In this document: positions 20,141-39,119 of the stretch, one piece after another
How positions within the stretch are numbered: the stretch's first letter is position 1
Layout: every line of letters begins with the position of its first letter
Source: Candidatus Binataceae bacterium
GTDB lineage: Bacteria > Desulfobacterota > Binatia > Binatales > Binataceae
DNA: 64,000 nucleotides
Assembly: GCA_030041155.1 (NCBI GenBank)
Contig: JASHOJ010000187.1
Location: 1,446-65,445, forward strand
Direction of reading: 5' to 3'
The notes under the pieces: generated by a model
Database searches by the model: none
Seen by the model: only the letters and a program-made list of their open reading frames with translations
Told to the model about the DNA's origin: nothing
Program-made: the position numbers and the translations under genes

Positions 20141-21022
20141 TTATTCGGTGGTGCAAGAACCGTCGAGGATGTAGTCAGCGGCCTTTTGCGCCTTGGCGGC
20201 GGCGATCACGATCAGGCGCTTGTCGCTGCGCACTCGCGCCAACCACCCTTGAAGGTAGGCCGCTTCGTTCTCGATCACCGCCGGCGAAATTCCTGCCTCC
20301 GCGCAGAGATAGGCGGCTGACATTTCCGCGATTAACTCTTCCGCGGCGTATGTCGGCGAACCGAAGGGTGCCGCCTCCGCGATCGATTCACGATTGAGTC
20401 GCTTCGGGTGTCCTGCCGCGTGGGATTCTTCGTGGTTCAGGGTCGCATAAAATTCGGCAGCGCTGCTGAAAAGCTCGCGCGGCGGCAGCGTGATGCGATC
20501 GGCCGTCGGGCTATAGAAAGCTTTCGATCCGCCGAATTCAATAGCCGGCGGGTTCGGCATATTGGCGATGATCCGCTCCGCTGCTTCGATGGGATCGCGC
20601 TGGTACGTCTGAATCTTCGGAAGCCTGTCCAGCACCGCTTGCGGCAGCTCGCACTGCTCTACGTTCCAGAGTCGGTAATAGCGCAGGACGAAGCGTCGGC
20701 GATTCCTCCGGTCCGCTTCCACCTTCTCCAGGTCCGGCTCCGCCTCGGACTGCGATGCGCCATCTACTCGCCAGAACACGACGATTTGGCTTTGCTCGCC
20801 TTTCGGCACCGATCCGCCAAGCTCGTTAGCCTGCCTGAGCGTGAGCCAGTATGGCGACACGTACTTGGTCGCCGACAAAAGAAAGAAGTTCACGCCGCGA
20901 TAGATCTTTTTCGAGACGATGTTGCGCGGTGCTCCAGCCGCGCTCCATGGCCGACGCCACGGAATCACGCCTTGCTCAAGCAGGTTGATGATCCTCTCAG
21001 TCACGATTGCGTAAGTGTTCAT
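20141..21022 (-). CDS. ardC: Antirestriction protein ArdC (ssDNA-binding N-domain plus metalloprotease C-domain)
   Basis: 'MNTYAIVTERIINLLEQGVIPWRRPW' is an ArdC/DUF1738-type N-terminus. 'LNHEESHAAGH' is the HEXXH zinc-protease motif. Confidence 0.8.
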   Translation of the reverse strand: MNTYAIVTERIINLLEQGVIPWRRPWSAAGAPRNIVSKKIYRGVNFFLLSATKYVSPYWLTLRQANELGGSVPKGEQSQIVVFWRVDGASQSEAEPDLEKVEADRRNRRRFVLRYYRLWNVEQCELPQAVLDRLPKIQTYQRDPIEAAERIIANMPNPPAIEFGGSKAFYSPTADRITLPPRELFSSAAEFYATLNHEESHAAGHPKRLNRESIAEAAPFGSPTYAAEELIAEMSAAYLCAEAGISPAVIENEAAYLQGWLARVRSDKRLIVIAAAKAQKAADYILDGSCTTE

Positions 21023-21252
21023 TGTCGCTCCGCTCCTCTTCTGGCGCCCGCTTCCGCGAAAGCGGCAGGGCGCGGCTTGGTTCGTAAACACCCGAACCGT
21101 TTTCCGCCCTCGCGCTCTTCACCCCTGACTGAGAGTGCGAGGGTGGAAAGACTCGCCGCGGAGCGAAGCGGAGCTACCAATGAGCGCGACGGAGCAATTC
21201 AAGGCCGCCGTGACAAGCGCGAGCGGTCTCGGTCAGGGATGGCGCGGCGGCC

Positions 21253-21633
21253 TTGAGCGCAGCCGCGCAAGGCGGAGTGGTGGGCATTGCGGTGTTGCTC
21301 ACGTATGTGACTGCGATATACATTGTCAGGGTGGATTGGGAGGAAAGGCTGGCGAGTTGCGAAGGGTTCCAATGGGATGCCGGCAACGCGGCAAAGATCT
21401 GGGACCGTCATCAGGTGACCCCGGCCGAATGCGAGGAGCTGTTCTTCAATCGGCCTCTAGTGGTGGCCACTGACGAAGAGCACTCCGCAGGCGAAGAACG
21501 GCTCTACGCACTCGGCCAGAGCGATAGTGCAAGGCTGATGTTCGTGGTGTTTACGATTCGTGGGCGGCTGATCCGCGTGATCTCGGCACGCGATATGAGT
21601 CGCAAGGAGCGAAGGATTTACCGATCATCATGA
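21253..21633 (+). CDS. brnT: BrnT-family toxin (DUF497)
   Basis: 'FQWDAGNAAKIWDRHQVTPAECEE' matches the BrnT signature. The true start may be GTG at 21331, which gives ~100 aa. Confidence 0.6.
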   Translation: MSAAAQGGVVGIAVLLTYVTAIYIVRVDWEERLASCEGFQWDAGNAAKIWDRHQVTPAECEELFFNRPLVVATDEEHSAGEERLYALGQSDSARLMFVVFTIRGRLIRVISARDMSRKERRIYRSS

Positions 21634-21902
21634 AAAAGGCACTACCCAAATTCAAAAGTGAAGACGCCGAGCGGGAGTTTTGGGCAACTCACGACTCGAC
21701 CGAATTCGTCAATTGGCGCAAAGCGAAGCGCATGATCCCGCCGAGCCTGAGGCCCTCCTCGCAGACCATCTCACTGCGTCTACCTAAGCCGATGCTCGAT
21801 CGCCTCAAGCTTCTCGCGAACAAACGGGACGTGCCGTATCAATCGCTGTTGAAAATGTTCGTTGCGGAGCGGCTTGAGGCTGAGCTGAAGGGACAGCGAT
21901 GA
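21630..21902 (+). CDS. brnA: BrnA-family antitoxin (CopG-like)
   Basis: ATGA overlap with brnT. 'EREFWATHDSTEFVNW...SLRLPKPMLDRLKLLANKRDVPYQSLLKMFVAERL' is the BrnA/ribbon-helix-helix pattern. Confidence 0.6.
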   Translation: MKKALPKFKSEDAEREFWATHDSTEFVNWRKAKRMIPPSLRPSSQTISLRLPKPMLDRLKLLANKRDVPYQSLLKMFVAERLEAELKGQR

Positions 21903-22126
21903 AGTGCGAGATGAAGTGCGATCAGAATCCGTCGCTGAAGGGGGATAAAAACGCTGGGTGCAGACGCCAAATAGGTGAAAACCCGGCATAGAGTGCACCT
22001 AAGGGAGTGACTGGCAGTCTTACCCCTCGAAAGATCCGGAGTGCCGAGACCGTCCTGGGAGTGGTCCAGGCGTGAGCGCTGATGTGTTTTACCGGAAAAT
22101 CGGTAAGACAGCGCCATACTGTATGC

Positions 22127-22155
22127 TTGACAATCGCTGAAATACGACGTACAGT
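22127..22155 (+). promoter_or_regulatory. Sigma70-type promoter of the DGQHR/SNF2/MTase operon
   Basis: TTGACA (22127-22132), a 17-nt spacer, then TACAGT (22150-22155). The AAGGAG RBS (22174-22179) lies 7 nt before the ATG at 22187. Confidence 0.4.
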
Positions 22156-22186
22156 CTGTGGAGTTTTGACGCAAAGGAGCTATACA

Positions 22187-23308
22187 ATGATCCTTTCATT
22201 TCCGGCGATGCGAGGGCACATGGGCAGGCGGGATTACTTTGTCACGATGGTGAAGCTCAGCCTGGTCCCCAAGCTGTTCAAATTCCGCGACTGGGCAGAG
22301 TTGCCGCCCGAGCAGCGGGCGCAGCGCGTGATCCAGAAGAGCCGTATCCCGGAAATCACCCAGTACATTCTCGATAACGAGGACGGCTATCTGTTCTCCT
22401 CGCTGACAGCCTCCTTCGATTGCGAACCAACTTTCACGCCTGTGAAAGGTCGGGATGATCTAGGCACTCTCGAGGTGCCGTTCGACTCGGATCTCGTGAT
22501 CAACGACGGTCAGCATCGACGCGCGGCGATCGAAGAAGCTCTCACCCAAAATCCGAAACTTGGCGATGAAACAATCTCGGTCGTGCTCTTCCCGTTCGAG
22601 GATTTGGGGCGGATGCAGCAGATGTTTTCCGACCTGAATCGAACCGCGCGCACCACCTCTAAGTCGCTCAACATCCTGTACAACCAGCGCGATCTCATGA
22701 GCCAGATCACGCTGACCGCAACCGAGCGCATCGACGTTTTCAAGGGTCTCGTCGACAAGGACCGCGTATCGCTCGCACTGCGGTCGCCCAAGTTGTTCAC
22801 GCTTGCTGCGATATATGACGCCACCAACGCGCTGCTCGGGTCAGTAGTCGACGCCGACTACGACAATAAGTTAGCGCTGGCGCTTGAGTTCTGGGAGGTC
22901 GTGGCGGAAAACATGCCCGAGTGGGAAAAGGTGAAAAGCGGCGATCTGAGACCGATGGAGCTTCGACAGGAATTCATCCATTCGCATGCCGTCGTGCTAT
23001 GCGCACTCGGTTCGATGGGCCAGACGCTGATTTCCACCTATCCGGATGAATGGAAAGCGCAGCTTCGGGGTCTTCGCAAGATCGATTGGCGCCGAACGAA
23101 CAAGGAATGGCAGGGAATCGCGATGTCCGGAGCGGACGTAGTCAATCGGCGGCAGAACCGGATGGACACTGCGTCCTTTCTTAAGCTCAAGATGGGGTTG
23201 AAGCTGACGCCGGCTGAAGAGCGCTCCATCAAGGGCGCCACCGATATCTCGTTGATCATGAACGACCTGCGCAAGTTTGCGGGCGAGCCTGCGGCAGCGG
23301 AAAACTAA
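22187..23308 (+). CDS. DGQHR-domain protein, DndB-like (ParB/sulfiredoxin-fold)
   Basis: 'DSDLVINDGQHRRAAIEEAL' carries the DGQHR motif (22505-22519). 374 aa, DndB-like size. No dndA/C/D/E genes nearby. Confidence 0.75.
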   Translation: MILSFPAMRGHMGRRDYFVTMVKLSLVPKLFKFRDWAELPPEQRAQRVIQKSRIPEITQYILDNEDGYLFSSLTASFDCEPTFTPVKGRDDLGTLEVPFDSDLVINDGQHRRAAIEEALTQNPKLGDETISVVLFPFEDLGRMQQMFSDLNRTARTTSKSLNILYNQRDLMSQITLTATERIDVFKGLVDKDRVSLALRSPKLFTLAAIYDATNALLGSVVDADYDNKLALALEFWEVVAENMPEWEKVKSGDLRPMELRQEFIHSHAVVLCALGSMGQTLISTYPDEWKAQLRGLRKIDWRRTNKEWQGIAMSGADVVNRRQNRMDTASFLKLKMGLKLTPAEERSIKGATDISLIMNDLRKFAGEPAAAEN

Positions 23309-23323
23309 CTCGGGGGAACTTCG

Positions 23324-23605
23324 GTGGACGACTCAAGCCAGCTTGTCGCACAGTTTGAGAAAAACGCCAAAGAGGAAGTTCGAGTCAGCATCGACGAATT
23401 TCGCGGGCGAAAGATCATCAATATGCGAGTGTATTACCGGTCCGATAGCGGCAAGTGGCTGCCTGGCAAACAGGGGCTTGCGTTGGCTGTTGATCGCTAC
23501 CGTGATCTCGCCGATGCCGTTCTAAGGCTTGGCGAACGGCTGCAGTCGCAAGGCCTGTTGCCAAACGCCTCGATCTCGACCGGCTCACGGACAGAGGGCA
23601 AATAG
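23324..23605 (+). CDS. PC4-like (transcriptional coactivator p15 / YdbC-like) ssDNA-binding protein
   Basis: 'VRVSIDEFRGRKIINMRVYYRSDSGKWLPGKQGLALAVDRYRDLADAV' aligns by eye with human PC4 '[48 protein letters not shown]'. Confidence 0.55.
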   Translation: MDDSSQLVAQFEKNAKEEVRVSIDEFRGRKIINMRVYYRSDSGKWLPGKQGLALAVDRYRDLADAVLRLGERLQSQGLLPNASISTGSRTEGK

Positions 23606-23615
23606 GGGACGGCCT

Positions 23616-26600
23616 GTGCCCAGCAAGCGATCAACAAGCCGCGAAGTCCGTGAGAATCCAACATCTGCGCAACCGGACCGAAAATCGGGCGGCGATGTTC
23701 TCGTCGTCGACAACAGCGACACCGATTGGAAGGTTCGTGACTACCTCCGAGAGTGGACGGAAATTGCTCATACCTTCGACATAGCTACGGGTTTCTTCGA
23801 GATCGGATCATTGCTGATGCTCGACGGCCAATGGCAGAAGCTCGACAAGATTCGCATCCTGATGGGAGACGAGGTATCGAAGCGCACGAAGAAGGCACTC
23901 GTCGATGGACTGATCGCCAAGGTAAAGTCCAAGCTCGACGACAGCATCGAACGTGAGAAGGAGTCTAACGATTTTCTAAGCGGAGTTCCCGCCATTGTTG
24001 ACGCCATCCGAAACCGTAAAATCGAGTGTCGCGCGTACACGAAAGACCGCTTTCACGCCAAGGCCTATATAACCCACGCGAAACTCGCGGTCGTTGGTTC
24101 AGCGGCGCTCGTGGGCTCAAGCAATTTCTCGGCGCCGGGCATCAGCCAGAACGTTGAGCTGAACATTCAACTCCGGCGCGAGGTTGAGCTGCTTCAGGAA
24201 TGGTTCGAGCGTCACTGGAAGGAAGCTGGAGACATTTCTGACGAGATCCTCAAGGTCGTCGAGCGGCAGGTCCGCGAGTACTTGCCGTTCGAGGTCTATG
24301 CGAAAGCCCTACTGGAGTACTTTCGCAACCACGAAATCTCAGCCGGCGAATGGGAACAGCTCCAGTCACGGATGTTCAAAGTCTTGGACCAGTATCAAAA
24401 GGAAGGATACCAAGCGCTCGTCAAGATCGCTCGTCAATACGGCGGAGCGTTTCTCTGCGACGGCGTCGGCCTTGGCAAGACGTTTGTTGGCCTGATGCTG
24501 ATCGAGCGTCTCGTGATGTACGAACGCAAGCGCGTGATGTTGCTCGTGCCCAAGGCCGCCCGCGAGTCTGTCTGGGAAGCCTCACTCAAGCGATACCTGC
24601 CGCATCTTCTTGGTGACTTCAGTAATCTCGTTGTCTTCAATCACACCGACCTTGGCCGAGGCAACGAATTCCCGGAGCGCTTTCAGCGGATGAAGGAACT
24701 CGCCGACGTGATCATCGTCGACGAGGCCCATCATTTCCGAAATCCAGGTGTTCGAGGCGGCGAGGACGCCCGTCCAGGAATTCGCAGGAAGGCAGAGGTC
24801 GCGCCCTCCCGCTACTGGCGCCTTTTCGAGATCGCCGAGGGCAAGACGCTTTTCATGTTGACGGCGACGCCCGTCAATAACAGCTTGCTCGACCTACAGC
24901 ACATGATTGAACTCTTCTCTCGTAGGCAGCCTGATTATTTCAAGGCAGCGCCGCTGGGAATCCATTCGCTTCCGGGGCATTTCAGGAAGATAGAAAACGA
25001 CCTTCTAAAGGCGCTTGGCGCTTCGAAGCCGAAGGACGACGGAGCGACGGAAACTAACGAAGTCGAAGCTGAGCAGGTTCTGTTTAGCGATGAACTGTTC
25101 CGGGCTCTCGTCGTACAACGCAGCCGTGCTTACGTACGCGAGAGTCAGAAGCAAGCCGGCGCCACCGAAGCTATCTTCCCGACGCGTGAAGACCCCAAGG
25201 TGGTGGAGTATTCGGTCAAGAAGACGTACGGGCGGGTCCTTGAAATGGTCGAAGCAGCCTTTTCGAAGAGCAAGCCCCTGTTCTCCTTGGCGATGTACTA
25301 CCCTTTGGCCTACTACAAGGGCGACGATACCACCATCAATCCTTTCGAGGAAAACCGTCAGAAACAGCTGGTGGTATTGATCCGGACCCAGTTCCTGAAG
25401 CGCTTTGAGAGCTCAGCGAAGGCGTTCGAGCTCTCTTGCGAAGCTCTGCTCCTCAAGCTCCTCGCTTTCATGACCAAGAACTCTGTGACCGATTCCGAAA
25501 AGCGTCGGCTTGAGCGATGGCGAGGACAGAACGCGGAGCTTCTCGGCTCGGTCAGACAGCACCAGTTGGAGCTGTTCGAGGAGGAACCGGAGCCCGATGA
25601 GGACGTTATCACCGAAGAAATGCTTGACGATGTCGAGGAGCTGTCTCGCGACGAATATAAGGTCGAAGAGATACTCGACGAGTCCCTCCTCGACATGGAC
25701 CAGATCGCGAAATTCCTTCAGGAACTTCAAAAGCTCAAGCCCGCGCAGGACGATAAGCTGCGAGCGCTGGCGCGTCTCCTCAAGACCGACAAGATTCTCA
25801 AATCCCACAAGGTCTTGATCTTCACCGAATTCATGGCGACTGCGCGATATCTGGCACGCGAGTTGGACAAGGCCGGCTTCGAAGGAGTCGATGAGATTGA
25901 CAGTGCCCGCAAGCGAAACCGTTCCGATGTGATTCGGCAGTTCGCCCCGTACTACAACGGTTCGTCCAGCGCCGAACTCGCGCAAGTCGGTCTTTCCGAG
26001 ACGCGCATCCTAATTTCGACTGACGTACTATCCGAAGGCTTGAACCTGCAGGACGCCGCTCGCCTGATAAATTACGACATCCATTGGAACCCCGTCCGAC
26101 TCATGCAGCGTATCGGTCGCGTCGACCGACGTATGAGCCCAGAAATAGAAGCACAACTCGTCGCCGATCATCCGGAACAAAAGCCGTTAAGAGGACAGGT
26201 CACGTATTGGAATTTTTTGCCGCCGGATGAACTAAATCTTCTGCTCAGCCTGTACAGCACGGTTTCCCACAAGACGCTGCGTATTTCGAAGACCTTTGGA
26301 ATTGAAGGGAAGAAGCTCCTCAAACCCGACGATGATTATGATGCGCTGCGAGACTTTATTCACTCCTACGAAGGTTCGACGACTCCCATCGAGAAGATGC
26401 ACCTTGAATATCAGCGGCTTCTCTCTGACTTTCCCGATTTGAAGGCGCGCCTCGACGTGCTTCCTGGGCGTGTATTCAGTGGAAAGCAGAACCTTAAGCC
26501 CGGAGCGCGAGGGGTGTTTTTCTGCTACGCACTCCCAACGCCGGCCGGTCCAGCCGAGCAGCGCGCAGAGGGCGAAGAGAACGGTTGGTCGGTGGAAAGG

Positions 26601-26840
26601 GGATACACCCGCTGGTTTCTCGCTGATCTCGACAGCGAGAAAATACTGGACGAGCCGTCTGAAATTATCGACTCCATCCGTAGCGATCCCGACACCCCGC
26701 GACGGGCGGTGTTGGACAAGGCTTTGCTTACCGAGACTCGTGTTCGGGTCGAAAAACACATCAAGAACACTTACCTCAAACAGGTACAAGCGCCGGTCGG
26801 AGTTAAGCCGTTGCTGAAAGCATGGATGGAGCTCAACTGA
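23616..26840 (+). CDS. PLD (HKD) nuclease-SNF2-family helicase fusion protein
   Basis: N-terminal 'DRFHAKAYITHAKLAVVGSAALVGSSNFS' HxK(x4)D(x6)GSxN motif at ~24050. SNF2 motifs 'GVGLGKT', 'IIVDEAHHFRN', 'LTATPVNN', 'LISTDVLSEGLNLQ', 'QRIGRVDR'. The track ORF begins at 23529 but overlaps the upstream gene; a GTG at 23616 lies 11 nt after the upstream stop. Start is uncertain. Confidence 0.8.
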   Translation: MPSKRSTSREVRENPTSAQPDRKSGGDVLVVDNSDTDWKVRDYLREWTEIAHTFDIATGFFEIGSLLMLDGQWQKLDKIRILMGDEVSKRTKKALVDGLIAKVKSKLDDSIEREKESNDFLSGVPAIVDAIRNRKIECRAYTKDRFHAKAYITHAKLAVVGSAALVGSSNFSAPGISQNVELNIQLRREVELLQEWFERHWKEAGDISDEILKVVERQVREYLPFEVYAKALLEYFRNHEISAGEWEQLQSRMFKVLDQYQKEGYQALVKIARQYGGAFLCDGVGLGKTFVGLMLIERLVMYERKRVMLLVPKAARESVWEASLKRYLPHLLGDFSNLVVFNHTDLGRGNEFPERFQRMKELADVIIVDEAHHFRNPGVRGGEDARPGIRRKAEVAPSRYWRLFEIAEGKTLFMLTATPVNNSLLDLQHMIELFSRRQPDYFKAAPLGIHSLPGHFRKIENDLLKALGASKPKDDGATETNEVEAEQVLFSDELFRALVVQRSRAYVRESQKQAGATEAIFPTREDPKVVEYSVKKTYGRVLEMVEAAFSKSKPLFSLAMYYPLAYYKGDDTTINPFEENRQKQLVVLIRTQFLKRFESSAKAFELSCEALLLKLLAFMTKNSVTDSEKRRLERWRGQNAELLGSVRQHQLELFEEEPEPDEDVITEEMLDDVEELSRDEYKVEEILDESLLDMDQIAKFLQELQKLKPAQDDKLRALARLLKTDKILKSHKVLIFTEFMATARYLARELDKAGFEGVDEIDSARKRNRSDVIRQFAPYYNGSSSAELAQVGLSETRILISTDVLSEGLNLQDAARLINYDIHWNPVRLMQRIGRVDRRMSPEIEAQLVADHPEQKPLRGQVTYWNFLPPDELNLLLSLYSTVSHKTLRISKTFGIEGKKLLKPDDDYDALRDFIHSYEGSTTPIEKMHLEYQRLLSDFPDLKARLDVLPGRVFSGKQNLKPGARGVFFCYALPTPAGPAEQRAEGEENGWSVERGYTRWFLADLDSEKILDEPSEIIDSIRSDPDTPRRAVLDKALLTETRVRVEKHIKNTYLKQVQAPVGVKPLLKAWMELN

Positions 26841-29800
26841 TGGCCTCTGCCCTGAGTGGTAACGCTAATCGCCTTCGCGACATCAAGACGTTCCCTTCAC
26901 TCGTCAAATACCTGCGCGATGACCTTGACTGGCCGATCGACAGCGATGACTTCGAGGATCTGACGTTCGAATGGGAGCCTGAGGAACTCGGGATCGACCC
27001 AGCAAGCGCGGCGAAGATTCAGGAGATCAAACAGCTTCGTCCTCTCAGCAGCGATCAACCTTGGGGCATCTTCTTCGTGAAGTTCGAGCCCCGGAGACTC
27101 CCAGTTGTCGCGCTGCGGCGGATCTTACGCGCCTTGGTCGTTCGCAAACGCGTTGCCACCGCTAAAGCTCAGCAGAAAACCTGGTCGCTCCACGACTTGC
27201 TGTTCATCTCAAGTTATGGCGAATCCGATCAACGGGAAATCGCTTTTGCTCACTTCGCCGAGGAACCGGAACTTGGAGATCTGGCGACGCTGCGGGTTCT
27301 CGGCTGGGATGAGGACAATGCCGAGGAACGCCTGCAATACACGGACGCAGTGCTGAGAGAGAAGCTTCGATGGCCGGATGACGACCGCGACTTGGATTCG
27401 TGGCGATCGCGATGGTCGGAAGCTTTTACCCTGCGTCCGGGAGAGGTAATTCGAACCGCCAAGGCGATGGCCGAACGTTTGGCGGAACTAGCCGTGAGAA
27501 TCCGTAAGCGGGTCATCGAGGTACTGAACTACGAGCGTGAGCGCGGACAGATGCGAAACCTATATGTCGCGTTCAAGGAGGCGTTGATCCACGACCTGAC
27601 CGAGGACGATTTCGCAGATACATACGCGCAGACCATCTGCTACGGTCTCCTGACCGCCCGCTTCTCCCGTCCGGCAGGCTTGATCGCGGAGAACCTGAAA
27701 GACATGGTGCCACCGAGTACCAATCCCTTCCTCCGGGAATTACTGGGTACCTTTCTCAAGATCGGCGGTCGCAAAGACAAGCTGGATTTCGACGAGCTTG
27801 GCATCACCGAAGTCCTTCAAACTTTGCACGCCGCCAAGATGGAAGAAGTAAGGCGCGACTTCCTCGAGCGGAATCCAGACGAAGACCCGACGATTCGCTT
27901 TTACGAAGATTTTCTCAAACAGTACGACCCCAAGAGGCGCACACAACGCGGGGTCTTTTATACACCACGCCCTGTCGTTTCTTACATCGTCCGCAGCGTC
28001 CACGAACTTCTCCAAAGTGAATTTGGACTTCCTGAAGGTCTAGCTTCGACCACTACCTGGGGCGAGATGGTGAAACGCCATCCCAGCCTGAAAATTCCCG
28101 AAGGAACAGCTCCCAGTTCGCCGTTCGTTCAGATCCTCGACCCGGCAGTTGGTACAGGGACCTTTCTCGTTGAAGTGATCGACATCGTCCACAAAACCAT
28201 GCTGGCCAAATGGGAAAGGGACGGTCGCAAGGCCCTCGAGATTCCGAAACTGTGGAACGAATACGTCTCGAGACATCTTCTTCCACGGCTTCACGGCTAT
28301 GAACTTATGATGGCTCCGTACGCCATTGCCCACATGAAGATTGGCCTGAAACTTCACGAGACCGGCTACCGCTTTGGCAGCGACGAGCGCGCCCGGATTT
28401 ACTTGACAAACTCACTGGAGCCGCCCCACGACTTTTCTGATCGGCTCGCGTTCGACGCTCCCGCACTTGCTCATGAGGCCAAAGCAGTCAACGCGATAAA
28501 GCGCGAACAACGGTTTACGGTAGTTATTGGTAATCCGCCTTATTCGGCTTCAATTTCGGAGCCCGACTGGCTCATGAAGGCACTGGAACAATGGAAGCAA
28601 GGTCTAAACGAAACGAAAATCGATCTTAATCGTGAAGAATGGAAGTTCCTTCGTCTGGGTCAGATCCTGTGTGGTAAAGCATCGCTCGGACTCCTGGGCT
28701 TCGTGATAAATCGTGATTACCTGGACGGCGTCGCGAAGCGAAAGATGCGAGAGAGCCTCCAAGAAAGCTTCCCCTACCGTCTGATTGTGGATCTAAACGG
28801 CGACGTAAAGGGCAACATCGCCGACCAGAACGTATTCGAGATTACGCAGGGTGTTTGCATAACGATCCTTTGCCGCGGCGATGGCGATCAGCATCGATTC
28901 TTTTCCGTTATCGGCAATCGGGACGAGAAATATTCCATTTTGTCGGATAAGGTGGCACTCGATCGGCATCTCATCAGTTTTACGCCAACGCCTCCATATT
29001 TTCGCTGGATTCCTCCCGCCGGACAGCGCTCGGCTGATGCTGAAAACGAGTATTTGCAATGGTATCCGGTCAACGAGCTATTTCAGGTCTACTCTTCCGG
29101 AATCCAAACCAAGCGCGACGGATTGTGTATTCACTTCAGCGAGAAAGATCTCTGGTCAACCGTAACCCGGCTGAATGAGCTCACTGTCGCCGCTGCTCGG
29201 AAAGAGTTTGACCTACCCCCGGACGGCCGAGATTGGACGGTCGCAGCGGCGAAAGCAGACATATCTGCATCCGGGCCGAACAAGCGATATATCACTCGTC
29301 TTCTGTATCGCCCATTTGATATCCGCTTTACCTACTGGACGGGACGCACGAAGGGTTTTGCCGCCTATCCGAGGCGTGAGGTTATGCAGCATGTTGTCGG
29401 CCGACACAATATAGGAATGATTTTCAATCGTCAGGTGGTCGGCGACGGCGTTTCTCACTTCGGGGTATCCCGTTTGCCCATTTGCCATGGCACGTTTTAT
29501 CTGGGGAACAAAGGGCAGGACTATTTCGCTCCTTTATTCATCGTAAGGGACGACCTTATCTCACGGTCAAACCCTCTCCTTGAGCCAAACTTTAGTACGC
29601 AGTTTGCGTCTGCCTTAGCGGACGTATGGAGGCGGACGGCTGATAAGCCAGCTCCTTCTGATGTCTTTAACTATGCCTATGCGGTCTTCCACAGTCCTAT
29701 CTATCGTAGGCGGTATGAAGAATTTCTGAAACGTGATTTTCCACGACTTCCGTTAACGGGGGACGCCAAATTGTTCCAAATTCTCGCGCGGCTCGGAGGC

Positions 29801-30193
29801 GAGCTTGTAGCCTTACATCTTATGGAGTCGGCGCTTCTGAATCGGCATTTGAGTGATTTTCTCGGCAGAAGGAGACCTGAGGTTGAAAGGGTCTCCTACG
29901 ACAACAAGACAATCTGGATCGACAAGGAGCAGGTCTGCGGTTTTCAGGGCGTGCCGGAGGTCGTCTGGGAGTTTCGCGTTGGGGGTTATCGGGTCTGCGA
30001 AAAATGGCTAAAGGACCGCAAGGGTCGCGTACTGTCCACGGAGGACATCGATCACTACCAGCGCATCGTCGTCGCTCTATCCGAGACTATTCGGCTCATG
30101 AAGGAAATCGACAAAGTCATCGAAAAACACGGCGGCTGGCCCGGTGCATTTTCCACTGACAACGTGGATTCGACCAGAAGCGCGAACGCGTAG
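26840..30193 (+). CDS. N6-adenine DNA methyltransferase, gamma-class, PglX/DrmMI/Eco57I-like (MTase plus putative TRD)
   Basis: Motif X 'GVFYTPRPVVSYIV', motif I 'LDPAVGTGTFLVEV', motif IV 'VIGNPPYSA' (NPPY at 28532-28543). N-terminal aromatic helix 'TYAQTICYGLLTARF' as in PglX. TGATG overlap with the upstream stop; an alternative ATG at 26822. Confidence 0.8.
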   Translation: MASALSGNANRLRDIKTFPSLVKYLRDDLDWPIDSDDFEDLTFEWEPEELGIDPASAAKIQEIKQLRPLSSDQPWGIFFVKFEPRRLPVVALRRILRALVVRKRVATAKAQQKTWSLHDLLFISSYGESDQREIAFAHFAEEPELGDLATLRVLGWDEDNAEERLQYTDAVLREKLRWPDDDRDLDSWRSRWSEAFTLRPGEVIRTAKAMAERLAELAVRIRKRVIEVLNYERERGQMRNLYVAFKEALIHDLTEDDFADTYAQTICYGLLTARFSRPAGLIAENLKDMVPPSTNPFLRELLGTFLKIGGRKDKLDFDELGITEVLQTLHAAKMEEVRRDFLERNPDEDPTIRFYEDFLKQYDPKRRTQRGVFYTPRPVVSYIVRSVHELLQSEFGLPEGLASTTTWGEMVKRHPSLKIPEGTAPSSPFVQILDPAVGTGTFLVEVIDIVHKTMLAKWERDGRKALEIPKLWNEYVSRHLLPRLHGYELMMAPYAIAHMKIGLKLHETGYRFGSDERARIYLTNSLEPPHDFSDRLAFDAPALAHEAKAVNAIKREQRFTVVIGNPPYSASISEPDWLMKALEQWKQGLNETKIDLNREEWKFLRLGQILCGKASLGLLGFVINRDYLDGVAKRKMRESLQESFPYRLIVDLNGDVKGNIADQNVFEITQGVCITILCRGDGDQHRFFSVIGNRDEKYSILSDKVALDRHLISFTPTPPYFRWIPPAGQRSADAENEYLQWYPVNELFQVYSSGIQTKRDGLCIHFSEKDLWSTVTRLNELTVAAARKEFDLPPDGRDWTVAAAKADISASGPNKRYITRLLYRPFDIRFTYWTGRTKGFAAYPRREVMQHVVGRHNIGMIFNRQVVGDGVSHFGVSRLPICHGTFYLGNKGQDYFAPLFIVRDDLISRSNPLLEPNFSTQFASALADVWRRTADKPAPSDVFNYAYAVFHSPIYRRRYEEFLKRDFPRLPLTGDAKLFQILARLGGELVALHLMESALLNRHLSDFLGRRRPEVERVSYDNKTIWIDKEQVCGFQGVPEVVWEFRVGGYRVCEKWLKDRKGRVLSTEDIDHYQRIVVALSETIRLMKEIDKVIEKHGGWPGAFSTDNVDSTRSANA

Positions 30194-30228
30194 TTCGGCC
30201 AGAACTTATCTGCTCGCAGGTTAAGCCG

Positions 30229-33200
30229 ATGCCAACCCCCTACGTTCGTCATGTCTCAGTCCGAGTTCCCTGGCAGGATGCCGTGTGGAATGGTCACGTG
30301 TGCGATGATCCCTTGGCTAACAGTTCCTGTCTCGCCCTGCGGTTGATCGCCGAGAATCGAGACGACGAGGTCGAGCAAGGACTCGCGAAGGAAGCATTTG
30401 ACGGACTCTCGCCGGAGCAGATGCCGCCTTGTCTTAGGAGCAGTGCCGCGTTCCTGTCCCCTCACTCGTACACGTTTAAGAGTGTGATGGAGTACTCAAA
30501 ATGGAGCCGCGACCACAAGCACATTCTGCCGCGTTCGGTTCATCTTCCGGCGTTTGGAGCACTGCTGATCCCTTATCGTTGGATGCTAAAGGAGAGCGGG
30601 TTTCAAATTGCCGAGAGTCTCGAACTGGACGCACACGCGGAGCGCGAGCCAAATAGACCATCCTGGCTGGTGAACACGAGCTGGGTTCAGCACCAGGACA
30701 ATCAACGAACCCTCCTCGATGCGTTCGCGAAGCCGCTCTTAGAAGATGAAACGCTAGTGTTCTTCTACGCGCCACGAACGCCACTTTGCGATGACGAGCG
30801 CCGGGCGCTTCTCGGAGTTGCTCTCCTCCAGAAGAAGTCCGACCTAGTTGAGTATCCCTACGAAGGTGGCAATCCAAACGGCCGCCTTCAGGCGATGGTA
30901 TGGGAACGGCCCATTCAGCATTCGTTGCGGCCACGACGGAAGAAGGGGACGGGATTCAGCGGAGGTTTCGTGATGCCGTATCACGAAGTCCTGGCGCTCG
31001 CAGAGCGCGACCGAACGGTCGATCCCGCCGAATTCGTGGCGTTTGTTCCTAACGACGTGCGCGTGCAGTTCTCCTATGGCAGCGAGCATGTTTCCCATGG
31101 TGTGGCGGCAACCGTTTTGACCGCTTCGAGGAATGCGCTGGAAAAGATTGGAACAAAGCTTGAAGGGCCATGGACTAGCTACATCAGTTGGATTGACGAA
31201 CGCCTCTCTCGCCTTTGGCGCCTACAAGGTCCCGCGCCAGGACTTGGTGTGACGTTGTCGGCGCTCCATAAGGGGTTCAATGGAACATTGTTCGCGGTCG
31301 CACTCTCGGATGTTCTCGGCGAAAACGAAGATCCATGGTCGGTCGTAGATAGGGTCCTATCGGGAGCACAGGACGCACCGCCCGGAGCACCGAAGATTAC
31401 GACAGTTCTTCGCCGACGCTGGGCTAACGTCAAAACCGATCCAAAGAGACTCGCGGCGCTGAAACTCCTCGCGCGCTTCGAACTGACAAATGATCAAGCT
31501 GATCGAGCTGTGAACGATTCTGAGCCTGCAAGGCTGTTGGGCAACCCTTACGTGTTATACGAGGACGATCGCAAAAGTTTCGACAGGGTGTCCTTTGCGA
31601 CGATCGATCGTGGTCTTTACCCAGGTGCTGAAATCGCCGCCGCGCATCCGCTATCTGCGGAATGCGACCGCAGTCTCGACGAACCGGACAATCCACTCCG
31701 CCTACGGGCCGCTTGTGTCCATATTCTCGAAGAGGCCGCTGCCCAGGGAGACACTATTCTACCTGCGGACCGTGTCAAAGATGCATGCGAGAAGCTGACT
31801 CTTTCCCGGCCGTTGCCTCTCGACGGCGAGTTGCTCGATATATTCCGAGACGATTTCAGGCCCGTAATTCAGGTCGGCGGTGAAAGGACGAAGCCGACCG
31901 CTCAACTGGAGCGATACGTTCACTATCGTGAAATCATCGAGCAGGCGGTCAAAAGCCGCCTCAAATCCAAGCCGAAGAGAGTCGTCGTCGACTGGAAAGC
32001 CTCTTTAATCCGCAAATTCGGGAAGCCCAGGCCGGGCGACGTCGATGAACTGCGCGCACGGCAGGAGAAAGAGGTTGCATTGGATCGGCTTACCGCAAGC
32101 CGAATCGCCACTTTGGTTGGCCCGGCGGGCACGGGTAAAACGACTGTCCTTGAGCTCTTGCTCCAGCAGGATGCGGTGGTCGGTACTCGGGTTCATCTTC
32201 TGGCGCCGACTGGGAAAGCCCGTGTCCGTCTCGCTCAGGAGACTAACCGACCCGGAGAGGGCGAAACCATAGCGCAATTTTTGTTGGCCTTGGAACGGTA
32301 CGACAAAGTGACGGGCCGCTATTTTCCCAATCCTTCAGCCGCTAAAGCCGAAGCGACGACCTGCATCGTCGATGAATCTTCGATGATGACCGAAGACATG
32401 CTGGCGGCCATCACCGATGCAATACCTGATAGTTGTCGTCTGATCTTGGTTGGAGACCCGTATCAGCTTCCCCCGATCGGCGCGGGGTGCCCGTTCGTGG
32501 ACATTATTGAGTTTCTCCGCCACAACCATGCGGAGGCCATAGGTGAACTAACAGTACCAAGACGGCAGGACACCAGCTCGCAAGACGGCCGTCGAACGAC
32601 CCCGCTAGAGCGATCGGACGTTCAACTCGCTGCGATCTTCTCTGGACGTGCGCTCCTTCCAGGTGAAGATGAAATCGCCGCTCGAATATTGACTTCTGCT
32701 GATGACGAATTTGTGAAGTGTCGCCGATGGGATCAGACGGCCGAGCTGCCGAGCCTTCTCAGAACGATCTTCAAAAAAGAATTCAGTGCGAACGATGACA
32801 CCCTACAGAGCAAGTTTGAAGAATTCCTTGGTGCAGTCACAAACCAGAAGGGATACCTCAACTTTGAAAATGGTTGTTCCGACGGGGCGTCCGATTGGCA
32901 GATCCTGTGCGTTACCAAAACTCAGCCCGGTGGCTCCATCCACCTGAACCGCCACATTAAGGAGACATACCGCAGCGAATGGCTAGAGAAAGCGATCGAA
33001 TCAAATCACGTTCCACACTTTCGAGATTGGTTTAGATTCATTAAGCCGCGGGGCCCGGAGCAAATCACATACGGCGACAAGGTGATTTGCGTGCGAAACC
33101 ATTTTCGGGGTCCTTGGATATATGCTGAGAGAACGAGAGGTCCCGAAGATGAATATATAGCCAACGGCGAAACCGGCATAGTGGTTGGACAGTGCGCCTA

Positions 33201-34017
33201 TGGTAAAAGCAATCCTCGCTTTACGCACGTGGAGTTCTCCGGGCGACCTGATCGCTCGTTCAGCTTTGGCCCTGGCGCCTTCCGCGAAGAAGGGCAGCCA
33301 TATCTTGAACTTGCTTACGCGATAACTGTCCACAAAGCACAAGGTAGCGACTTTGACACAGTGATTCTTGTGCTGCCGATGCAAAGCAGGTTGCTCTCTC
33401 GAGAGATGCTATACACGGCGCTGACCCGACAGAAGAGAAGAATCTGGATCCTGCATCAGGGGCCACTTGATAGCCTGTTGGCTTACCGCCATTACTCGTT
33501 CTCCGATATTGCAGCACGCTTCACGAACCTCCTACGCGAGCATCGACCACAGCAAGTGCCCAACCCAGTCGGCCTCCCGTCGGGTCTCCTGTCATTAAGC
33601 AGAGGGTTCCTCGAAGAACGCCTAGTCCATAGAACAGTTCGCGGTGAGATGGTTAGCTCTAAGTCGGAGCTCGCGATTGCCAATATTTTGTACTTACTCG
33701 AACGAGAGGGGCATTTGACATACGTAGTGGAGCCTCCATTGCCTTTTGCTGATAACGCAAAAGGCCGTTGGGCGGACTTTCAGATTAAATGTCGCAGCGG
33801 GACCTGGTATTGGGAGCACTGCGGAATGATGGATCACGAGAGCTATCGGCGGCGTTGGAAGCGGAAGGAGAGGCTATACCAGGAGAACGGCTTCACGCGT
33901 TACTCCGACGAGAATCCGTCTGGACACCTGATAGTCACAGAGGACGGATCGGGCCAGGGTCTGGACTCGCAGGCTATCGCCCTTCTGGCGCGCAAGCTCT
34001 TTGTCTCAGCGGATTAG
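30229..34017 (+). CDS. SF1 (RecD/Dda-like) helicase with unknown N-terminal domain and C-terminal DUF559/Vsr-like endonuclease fold
   Basis: Walker A 'LVGPAGTGKTTVLE', Walker B 'CIVDESSMM', 'YAITVHKAQGSDFDTVILVL' (SF1 motif VI region). C-terminal 'ELAIANILYLLEREGHLTYVVEP...ADFQIKCRSGTWYWEHCG' resembles DUF559/very-short-patch-repair nuclease domains. Confidence 0.7.
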   Translation: MPTPYVRHVSVRVPWQDAVWNGHVCDDPLANSSCLALRLIAENRDDEVEQGLAKEAFDGLSPEQMPPCLRSSAAFLSPHSYTFKSVMEYSKWSRDHKHILPRSVHLPAFGALLIPYRWMLKESGFQIAESLELDAHAEREPNRPSWLVNTSWVQHQDNQRTLLDAFAKPLLEDETLVFFYAPRTPLCDDERRALLGVALLQKKSDLVEYPYEGGNPNGRLQAMVWERPIQHSLRPRRKKGTGFSGGFVMPYHEVLALAERDRTVDPAEFVAFVPNDVRVQFSYGSEHVSHGVAATVLTASRNALEKIGTKLEGPWTSYISWIDERLSRLWRLQGPAPGLGVTLSALHKGFNGTLFAVALSDVLGENEDPWSVVDRVLSGAQDAPPGAPKITTVLRRRWANVKTDPKRLAALKLLARFELTNDQADRAVNDSEPARLLGNPYVLYEDDRKSFDRVSFATIDRGLYPGAEIAAAHPLSAECDRSLDEPDNPLRLRAACVHILEEAAAQGDTILPADRVKDACEKLTLSRPLPLDGELLDIFRDDFRPVIQVGGERTKPTAQLERYVHYREIIEQAVKSRLKSKPKRVVVDWKASLIRKFGKPRPGDVDELRARQEKEVALDRLTASRIATLVGPAGTGKTTVLELLLQQDAVVGTRVHLLAPTGKARVRLAQETNRPGEGETIAQFLLALERYDKVTGRYFPNPSAAKAEATTCIVDESSMMTEDMLAAITDAIPDSCRLILVGDPYQLPPIGAGCPFVDIIEFLRHNHAEAIGELTVPRRQDTSSQDGRRTTPLERSDVQLAAIFSGRALLPGEDEIAARILTSADDEFVKCRRWDQTAELPSLLRTIFKKEFSANDDTLQSKFEEFLGAVTNQKGYLNFENGCSDGASDWQILCVTKTQPGGSIHLNRHIKETYRSEWLEKAIESNHVPHFRDWFRFIKPRGPEQITYGDKVICVRNHFRGPWIYAERTRGPEDEYIANGETGIVVGQCAYGKSNPRFTHVEFSGRPDRSFSFGPGAFREEGQPYLELAYAITVHKAQGSDFDTVILVLPMQSRLLSREMLYTALTRQKRRIWILHQGPLDSLLAYRHYSFSDIAARFTNLLREHRPQQVPNPVGLPSGLLSLSRGFLEERLVHRTVRGEMVSSKSELAIANILYLLEREGHLTYVVEPPLPFADNAKGRWADFQIKCRSGTWYWEHCGMMDHESYRRRWKRKERLYQENGFTRYSDENPSGHLIVTEDGSGQGLDSQAIALLARKLFVSAD

Positions 34018-34152
34018 TGCGGTTTAGTAAATAGGATCTCGTCAGAGAATCAGAGGACCGGCACGGCCGCCGCACAGTCCTTCGCGACATGGTGAAAAAG
34101 CTTTTGTTGTTCAAGTGATTCACGCGTCAGGACTGCAACTCGAGGCGCAGCT

Positions 34153-35298
34153 ATGGGGATTGCGAGCTATCAAGAAGACGATTTTGAGCGCTATACAGAC
34201 GCTCACTGGCGGGAGCTTAAATCCGCGCCCCAGGACCGACTTTATTTCTGCGATGTCTGTCGGGCTGAGTTCGCGAGCGAAGAGCAACGTGATCTACACC
34301 GGAGCGAGGTGCACTTGGCCGCGATTCCGCTGCTGCTGCTTGGAAATGTGGCGGCCCCCCACGAAATCCGGATCCGCAATCACAAGATGGCGGAGCAAGT
34401 CGGATTTCAAAACTGTCGCAAGCTTTCGGTTGCTCGCGACGGCCTTAGGCCGGTGCCCTACACCCCGACCCGACTGAAAGCCGAACTCGCGAAGGCCAAC
34501 CAGAGCCACTACCTGGTCCGTCCAGATGGTAGCGATGAGGAATACGTGATCTCCGTCCAGATTCCGGAAGCAGCGGTGCTGCGCGAAATTGATAGGACAT
34601 TCGTCGAATTGCTAGCAGTCGAAGCGCCGCGCGTTCAGGACATTGCCCGCTTCCGCGAAGTTGCCGCATCCATCGGTCGGGTCGGCGAATACAGCGGTGC
34701 GTTAGCTGATTACGTTATGGGCACGATCATCAAGGATCGGGATCACGCGCGCGGCGCCACGCTCGATTTTAATGAGTACAAGCCGAAGTACGAGTCCGCG
34801 CGCGCCATCCTTTTTGATTATGTGAAGGACGAGAGCCACCGCCCACCCGTCCCAGAGGCGGTCTGCGCGTCCATCAATTTTGGTCTTAACCAGTTTGACG
34901 GAACCTATCGTCCCGTCGGGATTCGGCTTCTCGACGACTGTGTCAGGTTTCTACTGCCACTTCTCGGTCCGACTACCAAGCTGCCAGACTTCACGCTCGT
35001 GTCACCCAGCCGGCATGGTGCCCCGATCTGTCCGCTCGATGGTGGCACGCATCATGTGCTGCAGGCCTTCGAGCGGATCAGCCTCAGCTCCGGTCGGTCA
35101 TTAGACGTGCTTCGGGAAGAGGCGGAAAAGGCCGAAAGCACCCTGCTTTCCGAGTATGACCGTGCGAAGCTTTACACGTTTACGGCGGTGGGACTTTTAA
35201 AGGCGGGCGATCGCAGCTCCTCTAAAAAGATACTCGCGCATCTCGTGAACGATTTTACTTTTAGCCGATGGGCCGAAGCTCAACTCTATTCCGCATGA
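34153..35298 (+). CDS. Hypothetical protein with N-terminal C2H2-type zinc finger
   Basis: 'YFCDVCRAEFASEEQRDLHRSEVH' is a perfect C-x2-C-x12-H-x4-H pattern. 381 aa, first gene of a coupled trio. Confidence 0.5.
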   Translation: MGIASYQEDDFERYTDAHWRELKSAPQDRLYFCDVCRAEFASEEQRDLHRSEVHLAAIPLLLLGNVAAPHEIRIRNHKMAEQVGFQNCRKLSVARDGLRPVPYTPTRLKAELAKANQSHYLVRPDGSDEEYVISVQIPEAAVLREIDRTFVELLAVEAPRVQDIARFREVAASIGRVGEYSGALADYVMGTIIKDRDHARGATLDFNEYKPKYESARAILFDYVKDESHRPPVPEAVCASINFGLNQFDGTYRPVGIRLLDDCVRFLLPLLGPTTKLPDFTLVSPSRHGAPICPLDGGTHHVLQAFERISLSSGRSLDVLREEAEKAESTLLSEYDRAKLYTFTAVGLLKAGDRSSSKKILAHLVNDFTFSRWAEAQLYSA

Positions 35299-38303: not shown

Positions 38304-39119
38304 ATGCCAGCTACAACACCGAATATCCGTCGGGAGCTTGCTCGTCGCTACCGTGACTGTCCAATCGATTGTCCGATGTTTCAAGACGAGCTGATTTCCA
38401 CGCTGAGCGATTTCTTCGGTGTGTTTCACTCTTTGTTGGAGCCAGACAAAGTGTTTTGGTTTCGAGGCCATCCACGACTGACGCATTCACTCGCCCCTTC
38501 AGCGCTTCGATACACCGAGCAAGAGAAGAGGGATACGGCGCTCCGTCTCGTAGCTGATATGAAGCGCTTCCTGGACATGAAGTTAGGCCGCCCGCCGGCT
38601 CCCGACGATGACCTCGGGTGGATTCAGGTTGCGCAGCATTATGGACTACCCACACGACTGTTAGACTGGACTCAGAATGCAGCGGTGGCACTCTTTTTCT
38701 CGTGCAGCAAAGACATCGATTCGGATGGCTTGGTCGTAATCCTTAATCCTATCGAACTCAATCAAAGTGCCGATCCTCGCTCGCCACGCGTGTTCAATAT
38801 GGAACGAGATGCCAGAATCATCAGACCATACTTGAAGCTCGACGGCAGAATACGACCTTCGGGCAAGCGCACAATCGCAATCAACCCAACCTGGAACACC
38901 GAAAGAATCGCTCTACAGCAAGGTGTCTTTACTCTCCACGGTTCGCGAACCTTTGCGTTGGATCGCGGTCAGGCAAGCTCCCTCCTATACGTACCTATAT
39001 TGCGCGAGCACAAAAGCGCTCTATTAAACGAGTTGGAGCGTGTTGGTATCGGTGAGATGTTCATTTTTCCGGAACCGGAACATGTGTGCTCTCACCTCCG
39101 GCGAGGTGCCGGATTGTAA
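38304..39119 (+). CDS. FRG-domain protein
   Basis: 'KVFWFRGHPRLTHSLAPSALR' is the FRG signature. 271 aa. Confidence 0.6.
   Translation: MPATTPNIRRELARRYRDCPIDCPMFQDELISTLSDFFGVFHSLLEPDKVFWFRGHPRLTHSLAPSALRYTEQEKRDTALRLVADMKRFLDMKLGRPPAPDDDLGWIQVAQHYGLPTRLLDWTQNAAVALFFSCSKDIDSDGLVVILNPIELNQSADPRSPRVFNMERDARIIRPYLKLDGRIRPSGKRTIAINPTWNTERIALQQGVFTLHGSRTFALDRGQASSLLYVPILREHKSALLNELERVGIGEMFIFPEPEHVCSHLRRGAGL

Follow-up and report, generated by a model that had tools for sequence, protein, structure and literature searches.

A 64,000-nucleotide stretch of the genome of a Candidatus Binataceae bacterium (contig JASHOJ010000187.1; this whole stretch is referred to below as the window) contains two adjacent genes, at 23616-26840 and 26840-30193 on the forward strand, that probably encode a two-subunit, ATP-dependent restriction-modification (R-M) system of a 'split Type ISP' or Type III-like kind. 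The first gene, denoted here Res, encodes a nuclease domain of the PLD/HKD type joined to an SNF2-type ATPase, and the second, denoted Mod, encodes a DNA methyltransferase (MTase) with a target recognition domain (TRD). The case is built on the identities of the domains, their intact motifs, the conservation of the two-gene arrangement, the coupling of the genes, the hypervariability of the TRD and the co-segregation of the N-terminal domain of Mod with the helicase; the setting of the pair in a defence island on a conjugative element was also counted for the R-M reading. From these observations we infer the R-M function itself, along with a physical complex of the two proteins, its methylation specificity, translocation, and cleavage that depends on dimerisation. 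The features of the pair are the following.

23616-26840, + strand: gene of the Res-like subunit (PLD/HKD domain and SNF2 ATPase), GTG start, TGA stop, 1074 residues; a single open reading frame (ORF) with Pfam matches and colinear full-length homologues
23697-24260, + strand: PLD/HKD nuclease domain, single copy, approximately residues 28-215; PLDc_2 above its gathering score, PLD profile matches
24054-24164, + strand: catalytic motif H147-x-K149-x4-H154 ... G167-S168-S169-N170 ... E181-x-N183, read from the translation and invariant in homologues
24381-26165, + strand: SNF2-type ATPase, with lobe 1 at approximately residues 256-440, a long helical and acidic insert at 441-700, and lobe 2 at 701-850; motifs invariant
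26166-26837, + strand: conserved C-terminal domain of Res, residues 851-1074, matching no known family
26838-26842, + strand: TGATG stop/start overlap, in which TGA (26838-26840) overlaps ATG (26840-26842)
26840-30193, + strand: gene of the Mod-like subunit, 1117 residues, with an N-terminal adaptor domain, a gamma-class N6-adenine MTase and a Type ISP-type TRD
26840-27439, + strand: N-terminal alpha/beta domain of Mod, approximately residues 1-200, a proposed docking module that co-occurs with close-family helicases
28940-30190, + strand: TRD, residues ~701-1117, with a hypervariable core at 701-940; aligns with the TRDs of LlaBIII, LlaGI and DrdV

The nuclease-motor subunit

In the ORF list, a single open frame extends without an internal stop over 23529-26840, and the Pfam matches of the product, to PLDc_2, SNF2-rel_dom, ResIII and Helicase_C, all lie in one chain, with an additional weak match to RE_NgoFVII. 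A preliminary description, made from the nucleotide sequence, had placed the PLD and SNF2 parts in one reading frame, and the frame is indeed continuous across them, with no frameshift in between. The same description preferred the GTG at 23616 over the 23529 end of the frame as the start of the gene. We also assign the start to this GTG because several lines of evidence agree: it lies 10 nt 3' of the TAG (23603-23605) of the upstream PC4-like gene, with GGGGA 6 nt 5' of it; it is the sole in-frame start ahead of the conserved block of Res; the 1074-residue product is present in a public protein collection at 100% identity (P0001); and the homologues start some 10 residues ahead of the conserved LFIVDNS block, with no conservation in any of them of the 29 codons from 23529 to 23616. 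The distance of about 150 residues given earlier between the HKD motif and the SNF2 core is right for the start of that core, with 138 residues from H147 to Walker A, but loose for the DEAH box, which is 222 residues away.

The PLDc_2 match covers residues 130-201 and scores 34.2 bits against a Pfam cutoff of 27. Comparison of the PLD domain profile with solved structures retrieves the phospholipase 7e0m (1.5e-7), the PLD domain of SauUSI (7clg; 8.9e-6) and BfiI (2c1l; 3.8e-5), followed by weaker matches to Nuc, PLD4 and a Zucchini-like hydrolase. The HKD stretch, DRFHAKAYITHAKLAVVGSAALVGSSNFSAPGISQNVELN, spans 24045-24170, with the H147 codon at 24054; the motif given in the preliminary description occupies 24054-24125 of it. 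The domain has a mean pairwise identity of 72%, and H147, K149, H154, G167, S168, N170, E181 and N183 are invariant in 27 full-length homologues of different phyla derived from the retrieved loci and in 36 database homologues, a conservation that exceeds chance. The combination of HxK, the downstream GSxN, a conserved acidic residue and the PLD profile match makes this domain a member of the PLD/HKD superfamily, in line with the original assignment, and alignment shows no substitution of the catalytic residues H, K, S, N and E. Each Res chain carries one HKD motif only. The PLD active site needs two HKD halves, and proteins with a single copy must dimerise, so that, with one half-site per chain, two Res chains would be required; that Res dimerises to complete the PLD centre is suggested by analogy with BfiI and SauUSI (PMC7913695).

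The motor part of Res matches SNF2-rel_dom at 34 bits (Pfam cutoff 24.9) and contains Walker A GLGKT at 24468-24482 and DEAH at 24720-24731. Across the same two sets of homologues, helicase motifs I (GLGKT), II (DEAHHFRN), III (LTATP) and VI (QRIGRVDR) are invariant. With these motifs, a long insert between the lobes and an SNF2 profile match, the motor is assignable to the SNF2 family, as had been claimed, and its best solved relatives are RapA, the Sulfolobus Rad54 (SsoRad54), Snf2, BRG1 and Ino80; no sequence match was found between the Res motor and the motors of the Type ISP enzymes LlaBIII and LlaGI. The C-terminal domain, with no match in Pfam and no sequence match in PDB, is nevertheless conserved at a mean pairwise identity of 63%, within the 63-74% range of the Res domains overall, and may be the part of Res that contacts Mod.

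A search of 5.8 billion proteins with Res yielded 5956 matches at E <= 1e-20. The best 120 of these are 1040-1156 residues long, share the same four Pfam domains and 65-82% identity, and come from Nitrospirota, Verrucomicrobiota, Bacteroidota, Desulfobacterota and other phyla. An exhaustive HMMER search of 1.84 billion cluster representatives gave 1330 at E <= 1e-30, a set of 50%-identity representatives that includes fragments and more distant HKD-SNF2 relatives. Full-length close relatives (1010-1085 residues) align from approximately residue 24-30 of the query, and the PLD domain is never missing; the PLD-SNF2 fusion is ancestral to the family. Among the 150 best cluster representatives, all of at most 1085 residues, there is no fusion of Res with the MTase in a single chain. 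The family is thus large and crosses phyla at 55-80% identity, which is typical of mobile defence genes. Among the plasmids in PLSDB, megablast of 22000-34100 found no match, and tblastn of the Res helicase against plasmids gave two distant matches only (27%), both cyanobacterial.

The methyltransferase partner and its N-terminal domain

The preliminary description assigned methylation and target recognition to a separate subunit, and the comparisons made here agree, Mod being a homologue of LlaBIII and LlaGI, both of Type ISP. In Pfam, Mod matches Type_ISP_C over the full length of the model (2.4e-74), as well as N6_Mtase and Eco57I. The profile matches in PDB are DrdV (3.5e-52), LlaBIII (1.3e-47) and LlaGI (5.7e-41), spanning the MTase and TRD, that is, approximately residues 340-1060 of Mod. 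The S-adenosylmethionine-binding motif I (DPAxGTGTFL) and NPPY are invariant in Mod homologues, and an identical 1117-residue protein starting at 26840 is present in the public collection (P0121). Some homologues are named "type ISP restriction/modification enzyme" by NCBI, and the REBASE-derived PADLOC model 'Type IIG restriction enzyme-methyltransferase' matches Mod at 3.4e-165. The TRD core, residues 701-940, has a mean pairwise identity of 41% (minimum 18%) compared to approximately 61% for the rest of Mod, which is the pattern expected of diversifying R-M specificity. Some Mod homologues of 1284-1497 residues (P0139, P0145, P0147, P0166 and P0227) carry an additional C-terminal LexA-like Peptidase_S24 domain, an unusual fusion for an R-M methylase.

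The association of the two genes was assessed in 80 genome loci fetched with the helicase as the probe, 36 of which contain a close relative (46-80% identity). In these 36 loci, the methylase lies directly 3' of the helicase wherever downstream DNA exists. Clustering of the neighbouring ORFs gave the helicase in all 36 and the methylase as an intact ORF in 25, and no other gene family around the pair occurs in more than two. The junction, counted from the stop codon of the helicase to the start codon that agrees with the N-terminus of the methylase, spans at most 10 nt in 30 of the 34 measurable loci (median 3.5 nt), with an overlap in 13. The identical TGATG is present in L014, L027 and L081-L086, which include the subclade nearest the window, whereas most other junctions have a 3-5 nt gap, with GAGG within the last helicase codons, approximately 8 nt before the ATG. 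The overlap of the stop codon with the ATG that had been read from the window is accordingly real, and tight coupling is kept across the family. In the closest chromosomal relative (82%; L081, 8972-17302), the pair is flanked by two paralogues of a 150-residue PNPOx_N protein, and the methylase is split into three ORFs, an arrangement that may reflect either an insertion with decay or indel errors of long reads.

Residues 1-335 of Mod have no counterpart in DrdV, LlaBIII or LlaGI, yet are well conserved. The first ~200 residues recur in methylases that belong to other classes but follow close-family helicases: a 1000-residue MmeI_Mtase/Eco57I-type methylase in L083 and a 1416-residue Eco57I methylase with Schlafen-AlbA_2 in L003 both share this part with the Mod of the window (31% identity; E 2e-18 and 1e-15). 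Downstream of the helicase, the next gene begins with the Mod N-terminal domain at 38 of the 40 helicase 3' ends for which the downstream DNA is long enough. The domain is absent from the methylase of the more distant HKD-SNF2 family and from the second methylase of the window (41856-45128), and a homologue search with the 200-residue domain found only short, fragmentary ORFs with no domain annotation. In an AlphaFold2 model of Mod residues 1-420, 10-residue blocks average 60-92 in pLDDT over residues 1-100 and 46-87 over residues 100-200, and Foldseek with this model gave no structural match at E <= 1e-3. Because the domain stays with the helicase even when the class of the methylase is swapped, we propose that it is likely to be a docking module for Res.

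Taken at face value, these features suggest the following mode of action. Mod would read a short asymmetric site through its Type ISP-type TRD and methylate one adenine at N6 to mark self DNA. Res would dock on Mod, probably through contacts of the Res C-terminal domain with the ~200-residue N-terminal domain of Mod. At an unmethylated site, the SNF2 motor would hydrolyse ATP, and the complex would move along the duplex or the DNA would be reeled through it. Two Res chains could contribute the PLD centre as a constitutive dimer, the arrangement of SauUSI and BfiI, or the centre could be assembled on the meeting of two translocating complexes, as happens with Type ISP and Type I enzymes. Foreign DNA would be cut away from the site.

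Genomic surroundings of the pair

The pair belongs to a row of genes on the same strand in which a DndB gene, a PC4-like gene and Res are separated by 15 and 10 nt, Res overlaps Mod, and Mod is followed after 35 nt by a superfamily 1 (SF1) helicase gene. The additional features of this row are the following.

22127-22158, + strand: promoter-like site TTGACA-17-TACAGT upstream of dndB, a consensus match only, with a flanking inverted repeat and the TACGACGTA palindrome
22187-23308, + strand: DndB-family ParB-like protein, ATG at 22187 with AAGGAG (mechanical ORF from 22082); accessory, lineage-specific and outside the core pair
23324-23605, + strand: PC4-like protein with a single-stranded DNA-binding fold, 93 residues, Pfam PC4 1.8e-13
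30229-34017, + strand: RecD/TraA-like SF1 helicase, 1262 residues, matching the PADLOC candidate PDC-S68 at 1341 bits, with no annotation for the first ~480 residues

The DndB assignment is based on TIGR03233 (399 bits against a cutoff of 328) and Pfam DndB (8e-114), with homologues aligning from residue 36 of the ORF that starts at 22082. Dnd phosphorothioation was considered and set aside, as no DndC, DndD or DndE domain was detected in the larger window ORFs scanned or downstream of the DndB homologues examined. DndB is absent from the 36 genome loci that contain the pair, and is present with the pair in L083, L084, L086, L124, L133 and L137. It is located 5' of a close-family helicase in L135-L140 and L142, where, save for L137, the contig shows no MTase. 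Probing of metagenomes with DndB produced 80 loci. Where the DndB is at least 65% identical to that of the window, the next gene is PC4-like in nearly all loci, and the cargo that follows varies: the close PLD-SNF2 helicase, and then the MTase where the contig suffices (L124, L133 and L137); the distant HKD-SNF2 family; a 1359-residue Eco57I-type methylase with a STAND NTPase; a Wadjet-like DUF2397...SbcC set; a GHKL (MORC-like) ATPase with a DEAD helicase; Schlafen-AlbA2 with a Piwi protein; or a ResIII helicase with an AAA_13 ATPase.

A scan for promoter and terminator consensus sequences gave fewer matches than shuffled controls and was informative only at the site 5' of dndB. There, within 22115-22158, the inverted repeat CATACTGTA/TACAGTCTG flanks the promoter-like site on both sides, and the palindrome GACGTACnGTACGTC occurs at the equivalent place 5' of the DndB homologues in many of the L083-L166 loci. 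The candidate site at 22127-22158 is likely to mark the start of the transcription unit. The DndB of Salmonella, an autoregulatory repressor, binds TACG-N10-CGTA (PMC4507180), an operator that the palindromes upstream of dndB recall. DndB and the PC4-like protein probably control or accompany the pair from outside the core system, and they may be a conserved regulator of a slot for defence cargo or merely a conserved flank. A bolder scheme, which we put forward tentatively and regard as doubtful, is that the two form a portable, autoregulated control or sensor module that heads a cargo slot in a family of conjugative elements and drives whichever cassette is plugged in behind it, the R-M pair being in turn a modular platform in which one PLD-SNF2 engine takes interchangeable MTase/TRD subunits by way of the 200-residue adaptor. 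The recurrence of DndB and PC4 suggests that the defence cargo of conjugative elements may have a regulator or anchor that had gone unrecognised.

The SF1 helicase accompanies the pair in L086 (87% identity), L083 (38%, upstream) and L002 (40%), and not elsewhere. The five-gene row recurs in L086 and, rearranged, in L083, beside ArdC, with a single-stranded DNA-binding protein (SSB) also near in L086; the pair is present without this row in L081, L082, L085 and the 36 genome loci.

The window as a whole is a conjugative element that bears a defence island. The conjugative backbone occupies 1-21902, with a TrwC relaxase-helicase (2770-5553), a TrwB/VirD4 coupling protein (5557-7425) and VirB6/9/10/4/11-like genes; at its end are ArdC with a zincin peptidase domain (20141-21091), which is also found 5' of DndB in L083, L086, L087, L091 and L141, and a BrnT/BrnA toxin-antitoxin pair (21253-21902). 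Beyond the SF1 helicase, 34153-38260 holds two unannotated genes (381 and 379 residues) followed by an Hsp70/MreB-like ATPase (618 residues); the trio keeps its order in L083, with identities of 71%, 59% and 82%, and is a possible three-gene unit of the defence island. Further downstream are an FRG-domain protein matching PDC-S15 (38304-39119), the second large Type IIG-like N6-adenine methylase (41856-45128), a RelA/SpoT-domain protein (47647-48753) and a match to PDC-S64 (49451-50494).

Relationship to known systems and alternative explanations

The pair had been likened at the outset to Type ISP or Type III logic. The likeness stands, but the Res/Mod pair is a member of neither type. With Type ISP (LlaGI and LlaBIII), it shares the gamma-class N6-adenine MTase, the same TRD family and the order nuclease, superfamily 2 (SF2) ATPase, MTase, TRD and, presumably, an asymmetric site methylated on one strand. 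Cleavage by Type ISP enzymes results from the collision of two translocating enzymes that come from head-to-head sites. In Type ISP, however, all domains belong to one polypeptide rather than to the products of two genes, the nuclease is of the Mrr-type PD-(D/E)xK fold rather than PLD/HKD, the motor is of the Type I/ISP type rather than SNF2-type, and a short coupler takes the place of the ~335-residue N-terminal region of Mod. Type III systems (EcoP15I), whose sites are asymmetric, resemble the pair in the two-gene organization, with a Res that combines an SF2 ATPase with a nuclease and a Mod that provides the specificity; they differ in gene order (mod-res there, res-mod here), in the nuclease (C-terminal PD-(D/E)xK there, N-terminal PLD here) and in Mod (beta-class with an internal TRD there, gamma-class with a C-terminal TRD here).

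The presence of a PLD nuclease where an Mrr or PD-(D/E)xK domain would be expected, pointed out in the preliminary description, is confirmed but is less unusual than was implied, because SauUSI and CglI/NgoAVII precede it. In the Type IV enzyme SauUSI, as in Res, an N-terminal PLD domain with a single HxK precedes an SF2 ATPase, and the two PLD domains align; the enzyme dimerises via its PLD domains, the active site is composed of the HxK motifs of two protomers, and the SF2 translocase is driven by ATP (PMC7913695). SauUSI nonetheless has its own SRA-type TRD and attacks modified DNA with no methylase partner, whereas here the MTase and TRD are separate and the motor is SNF2-type. CglI and NgoAVII likewise combine a PLD-family nuclease with an SF2 helicase-like translocase in ATP-dependent restriction (PMC5861437), but with separate R and H subunits, DNA recognition by R, and a separate 5-methylcytosine methylase.

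Class 1 DISARM also contains an SNF2-like ATPase (DrmD), a PLD protein (DrmC) and an N6-adenine methylase (DrmMI), but in the window the PLD and SNF2 parts are fused and the MTase does not resemble DrmMI. Of the NCBIfam models, the ATPase lobe matches DrmD best, at 126 bits against a cutoff of 610, and DrmC_I reaches 21.6 bits against 133. An alignment with BfiI and Nuc as well as with DrmC and DrmD had been proposed earlier; relatedness to BfiI, and more weakly to Nuc, is apparent, whereas DrmC and DrmD are distant, far below the family cutoffs. DISARM, whose core is defined by drmA, drmB (DUF1998) and drmC (bioRxiv 10.1101/2021.12.28.474362), was further rejected given that neither DrmA nor DrmB was found among the larger window ORFs scanned or among recurrent neighbours in the 36 loci.

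Fusions of HKD domains with helicases have been predicted to be components of Type I/III-like restriction in PbeABCD/CxC and Type-2 BREX-related systems (PMC10853773, PMC12839542). The N-terminal HKD followed by a helicase is shared by Res with PADLOC C3a139 'HKD+Snf2', PbeA and the Type-2 BREX-related helicase, but at only 25-30% identity and with other partners, which include an Eco57I/TaqI_C MTase with an SMC-like ATPase, a CxC ABC-ATPase with DndE, and DUF499 with DUF3780; the methylases of these other fusions have no N-terminal adaptor domain. Against the C3a139 profile, which owes its name to a survey of genes neighbouring Type III CRISPR (PMC6546367), Res reaches 177.7 bits, covering positions 27-728 of 948, whereas the sister protein of L041 scores 428 bits over the full length. 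On these scores, the Res family appears to be a sister of the C3a139 cluster rather than part of the same cluster. The sister HKD-SNF2 family (L037-L080; for example, L041 9968-18826 and L078 9977-18948), 25-30% identical to Res, forms a three-gene unit with a ~1300-residue Eco57I/TaqI_C methylase and a ~550-residue SMC/AAA_23-like ATPase. The candidates Hma (a partial match to HmaA, and no ATPase partner in the close family), the Type-2 BREX-related system (no DUF499 or DUF3780) and PbeABCD (no CxC ABC-ATPase or DndE) were tried and rejected.

Four other explanations of the pair were weighed. The BREX- and DISARM-style reading, under which the methylase marks self and the SNF2 protein acts on invading DNA by blocking or remodelling it, not by the classical translocation and cutting, leaving the PLD domain an auxiliary or other role, draws on the best NCBIfam match and several PADLOC matches of the ATPase lobes, which are to DrmD, BrxHI/II and DpdE, on the dispensability of DrmC, and on the HKD-helicase fusions of BREX-related and PbeABCD systems (PMC12839542, PMC10853773). 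We consider it improbable nonetheless: DrmA, DrmB, BrxC, PglZ, DUF499 and an ABC-ATPase partner were not found among the larger window ORFs scanned and are not conserved in the 36 loci, the DrmD and DrmC scores are far under the curated cutoffs, and the catalytic residues of the PLD domain are strictly conserved. It is also quite unlikely that Mod is a self-contained Type IIG/IIL enzyme, similar to MmeI or DrdV, with its own N-terminal nuclease, and that the PLD-SNF2 protein is separate or auxiliary. The strong match to the PADLOC Type IIG model, the position of DrdV (Type IIL) as the best solved relative of Mod by profile, and an N-terminal 200-residue alpha/beta domain with no assigned function all speak for such an enzyme. 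However, the homology to DrdV begins at DrdV residue 282, past its nuclease and linker; residues 1-335 of Mod hold no conserved PD-(D/E)xK-like triad, D119 being the sole invariant acidic residue and FEPK not being conserved; Foldseek detected no nuclease or other fold at E <= 1e-3; and the N-terminal domain tracks the helicase, not the MTase class, so that the strict pairing would be left without an explanation.

Two further readings appear very improbable. If the PLD-SNF2 protein were a modification-dependent Type IV nuclease akin to SauUSI, with the methylase an unrelated neighbour or a provider of some other protection, the shared order of N-terminal PLD and helicase would be accounted for, as would SauUSI being the best characterised match of the PLD domain. 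But Pfam detects no SRA/DUF3427-type domain in the Res C-terminus, the helicase is essentially never found without a methylase bearing the N-terminal domain (38 of 40), and stop/start coupling with a methylase is a signature of an R-M pair. We give similarly little credence to a non-defence module of the conjugative element, in which DndB, PC4, PLD-SNF2, the MTase and the SF1 helicase together would serve DNA processing or establishment. The five genes are indeed spaced by 10-35 nt, recur in L086 and, rearranged, in L083, and lie near ArdC and SSB; yet the pair is found in dozens of chromosomal loci with no DndB, PC4 or SF1 helicase, DndB-PC4 occurs with many other cargos, and the hypervariable TRD fits defence better.

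Several points weigh against the two-subunit R-M system that we favour. The Asp of the canonical HxK(x)4D is replaced by a conserved His154 (SauUSI has a Glu at this position; PMC7913695). It is co-occurrence that suggests contact between Res and Mod, and the AlphaFold2 model of the whole of Res, made with a 36-sequence alignment (65-82% identity), was too poor, with a mean pLDDT of 58 and a pTM of 0.39, to be used for a fold search or for domain packing. In L011, L028, L124, L133 and L137, an insert of 0.6-2.7 kb with one or two extra ORFs separates the helicase from the methylase. With the restriction gene placed ahead of the methylase and translated together with it, there is no obvious delay of restriction on entry into a new host. 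Because the PLD protein DrmC is dispensable for DISARM defence (bioRxiv 10.1101/2021.12.28.474362), a PLD domain beside a methylase is no proof of an effector role. Finally, no experimental data on any family member were found in the literature.

A combination of PLD with an SF2 motor is already known experimentally, from SauUSI and CglI/NgoAVII, and a search of open-access papers found no description of a PLD-SNF2 protein paired with an ISP-type methylase. The pair is abundant and probably mislabelled as Type IIG: in current pipelines the label of the methylase is 'Type IIG' or 'type ISP', and the nuclease-motor is recorded as no more than a generic helicase, so that censuses of defence systems probably misclassify a system for which ATP-dependent, site-distant cleavage, rather than cleavage of the Type IIG kind, is to be expected. 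If confirmed, the system would represent one more architecture of ATP-dependent restriction, in which a motor of the SNF2 remodeller type and a half-site PLD nuclease are served by a separate, ISP-like methylase and reader. The adaptor, if it does let one motor-nuclease serve several methylase classes, would be an example of the recombination of R-M modules, and the family would bear on the idea that the eukaryotic SNF2 remodellers descended from bacterial restriction motors.

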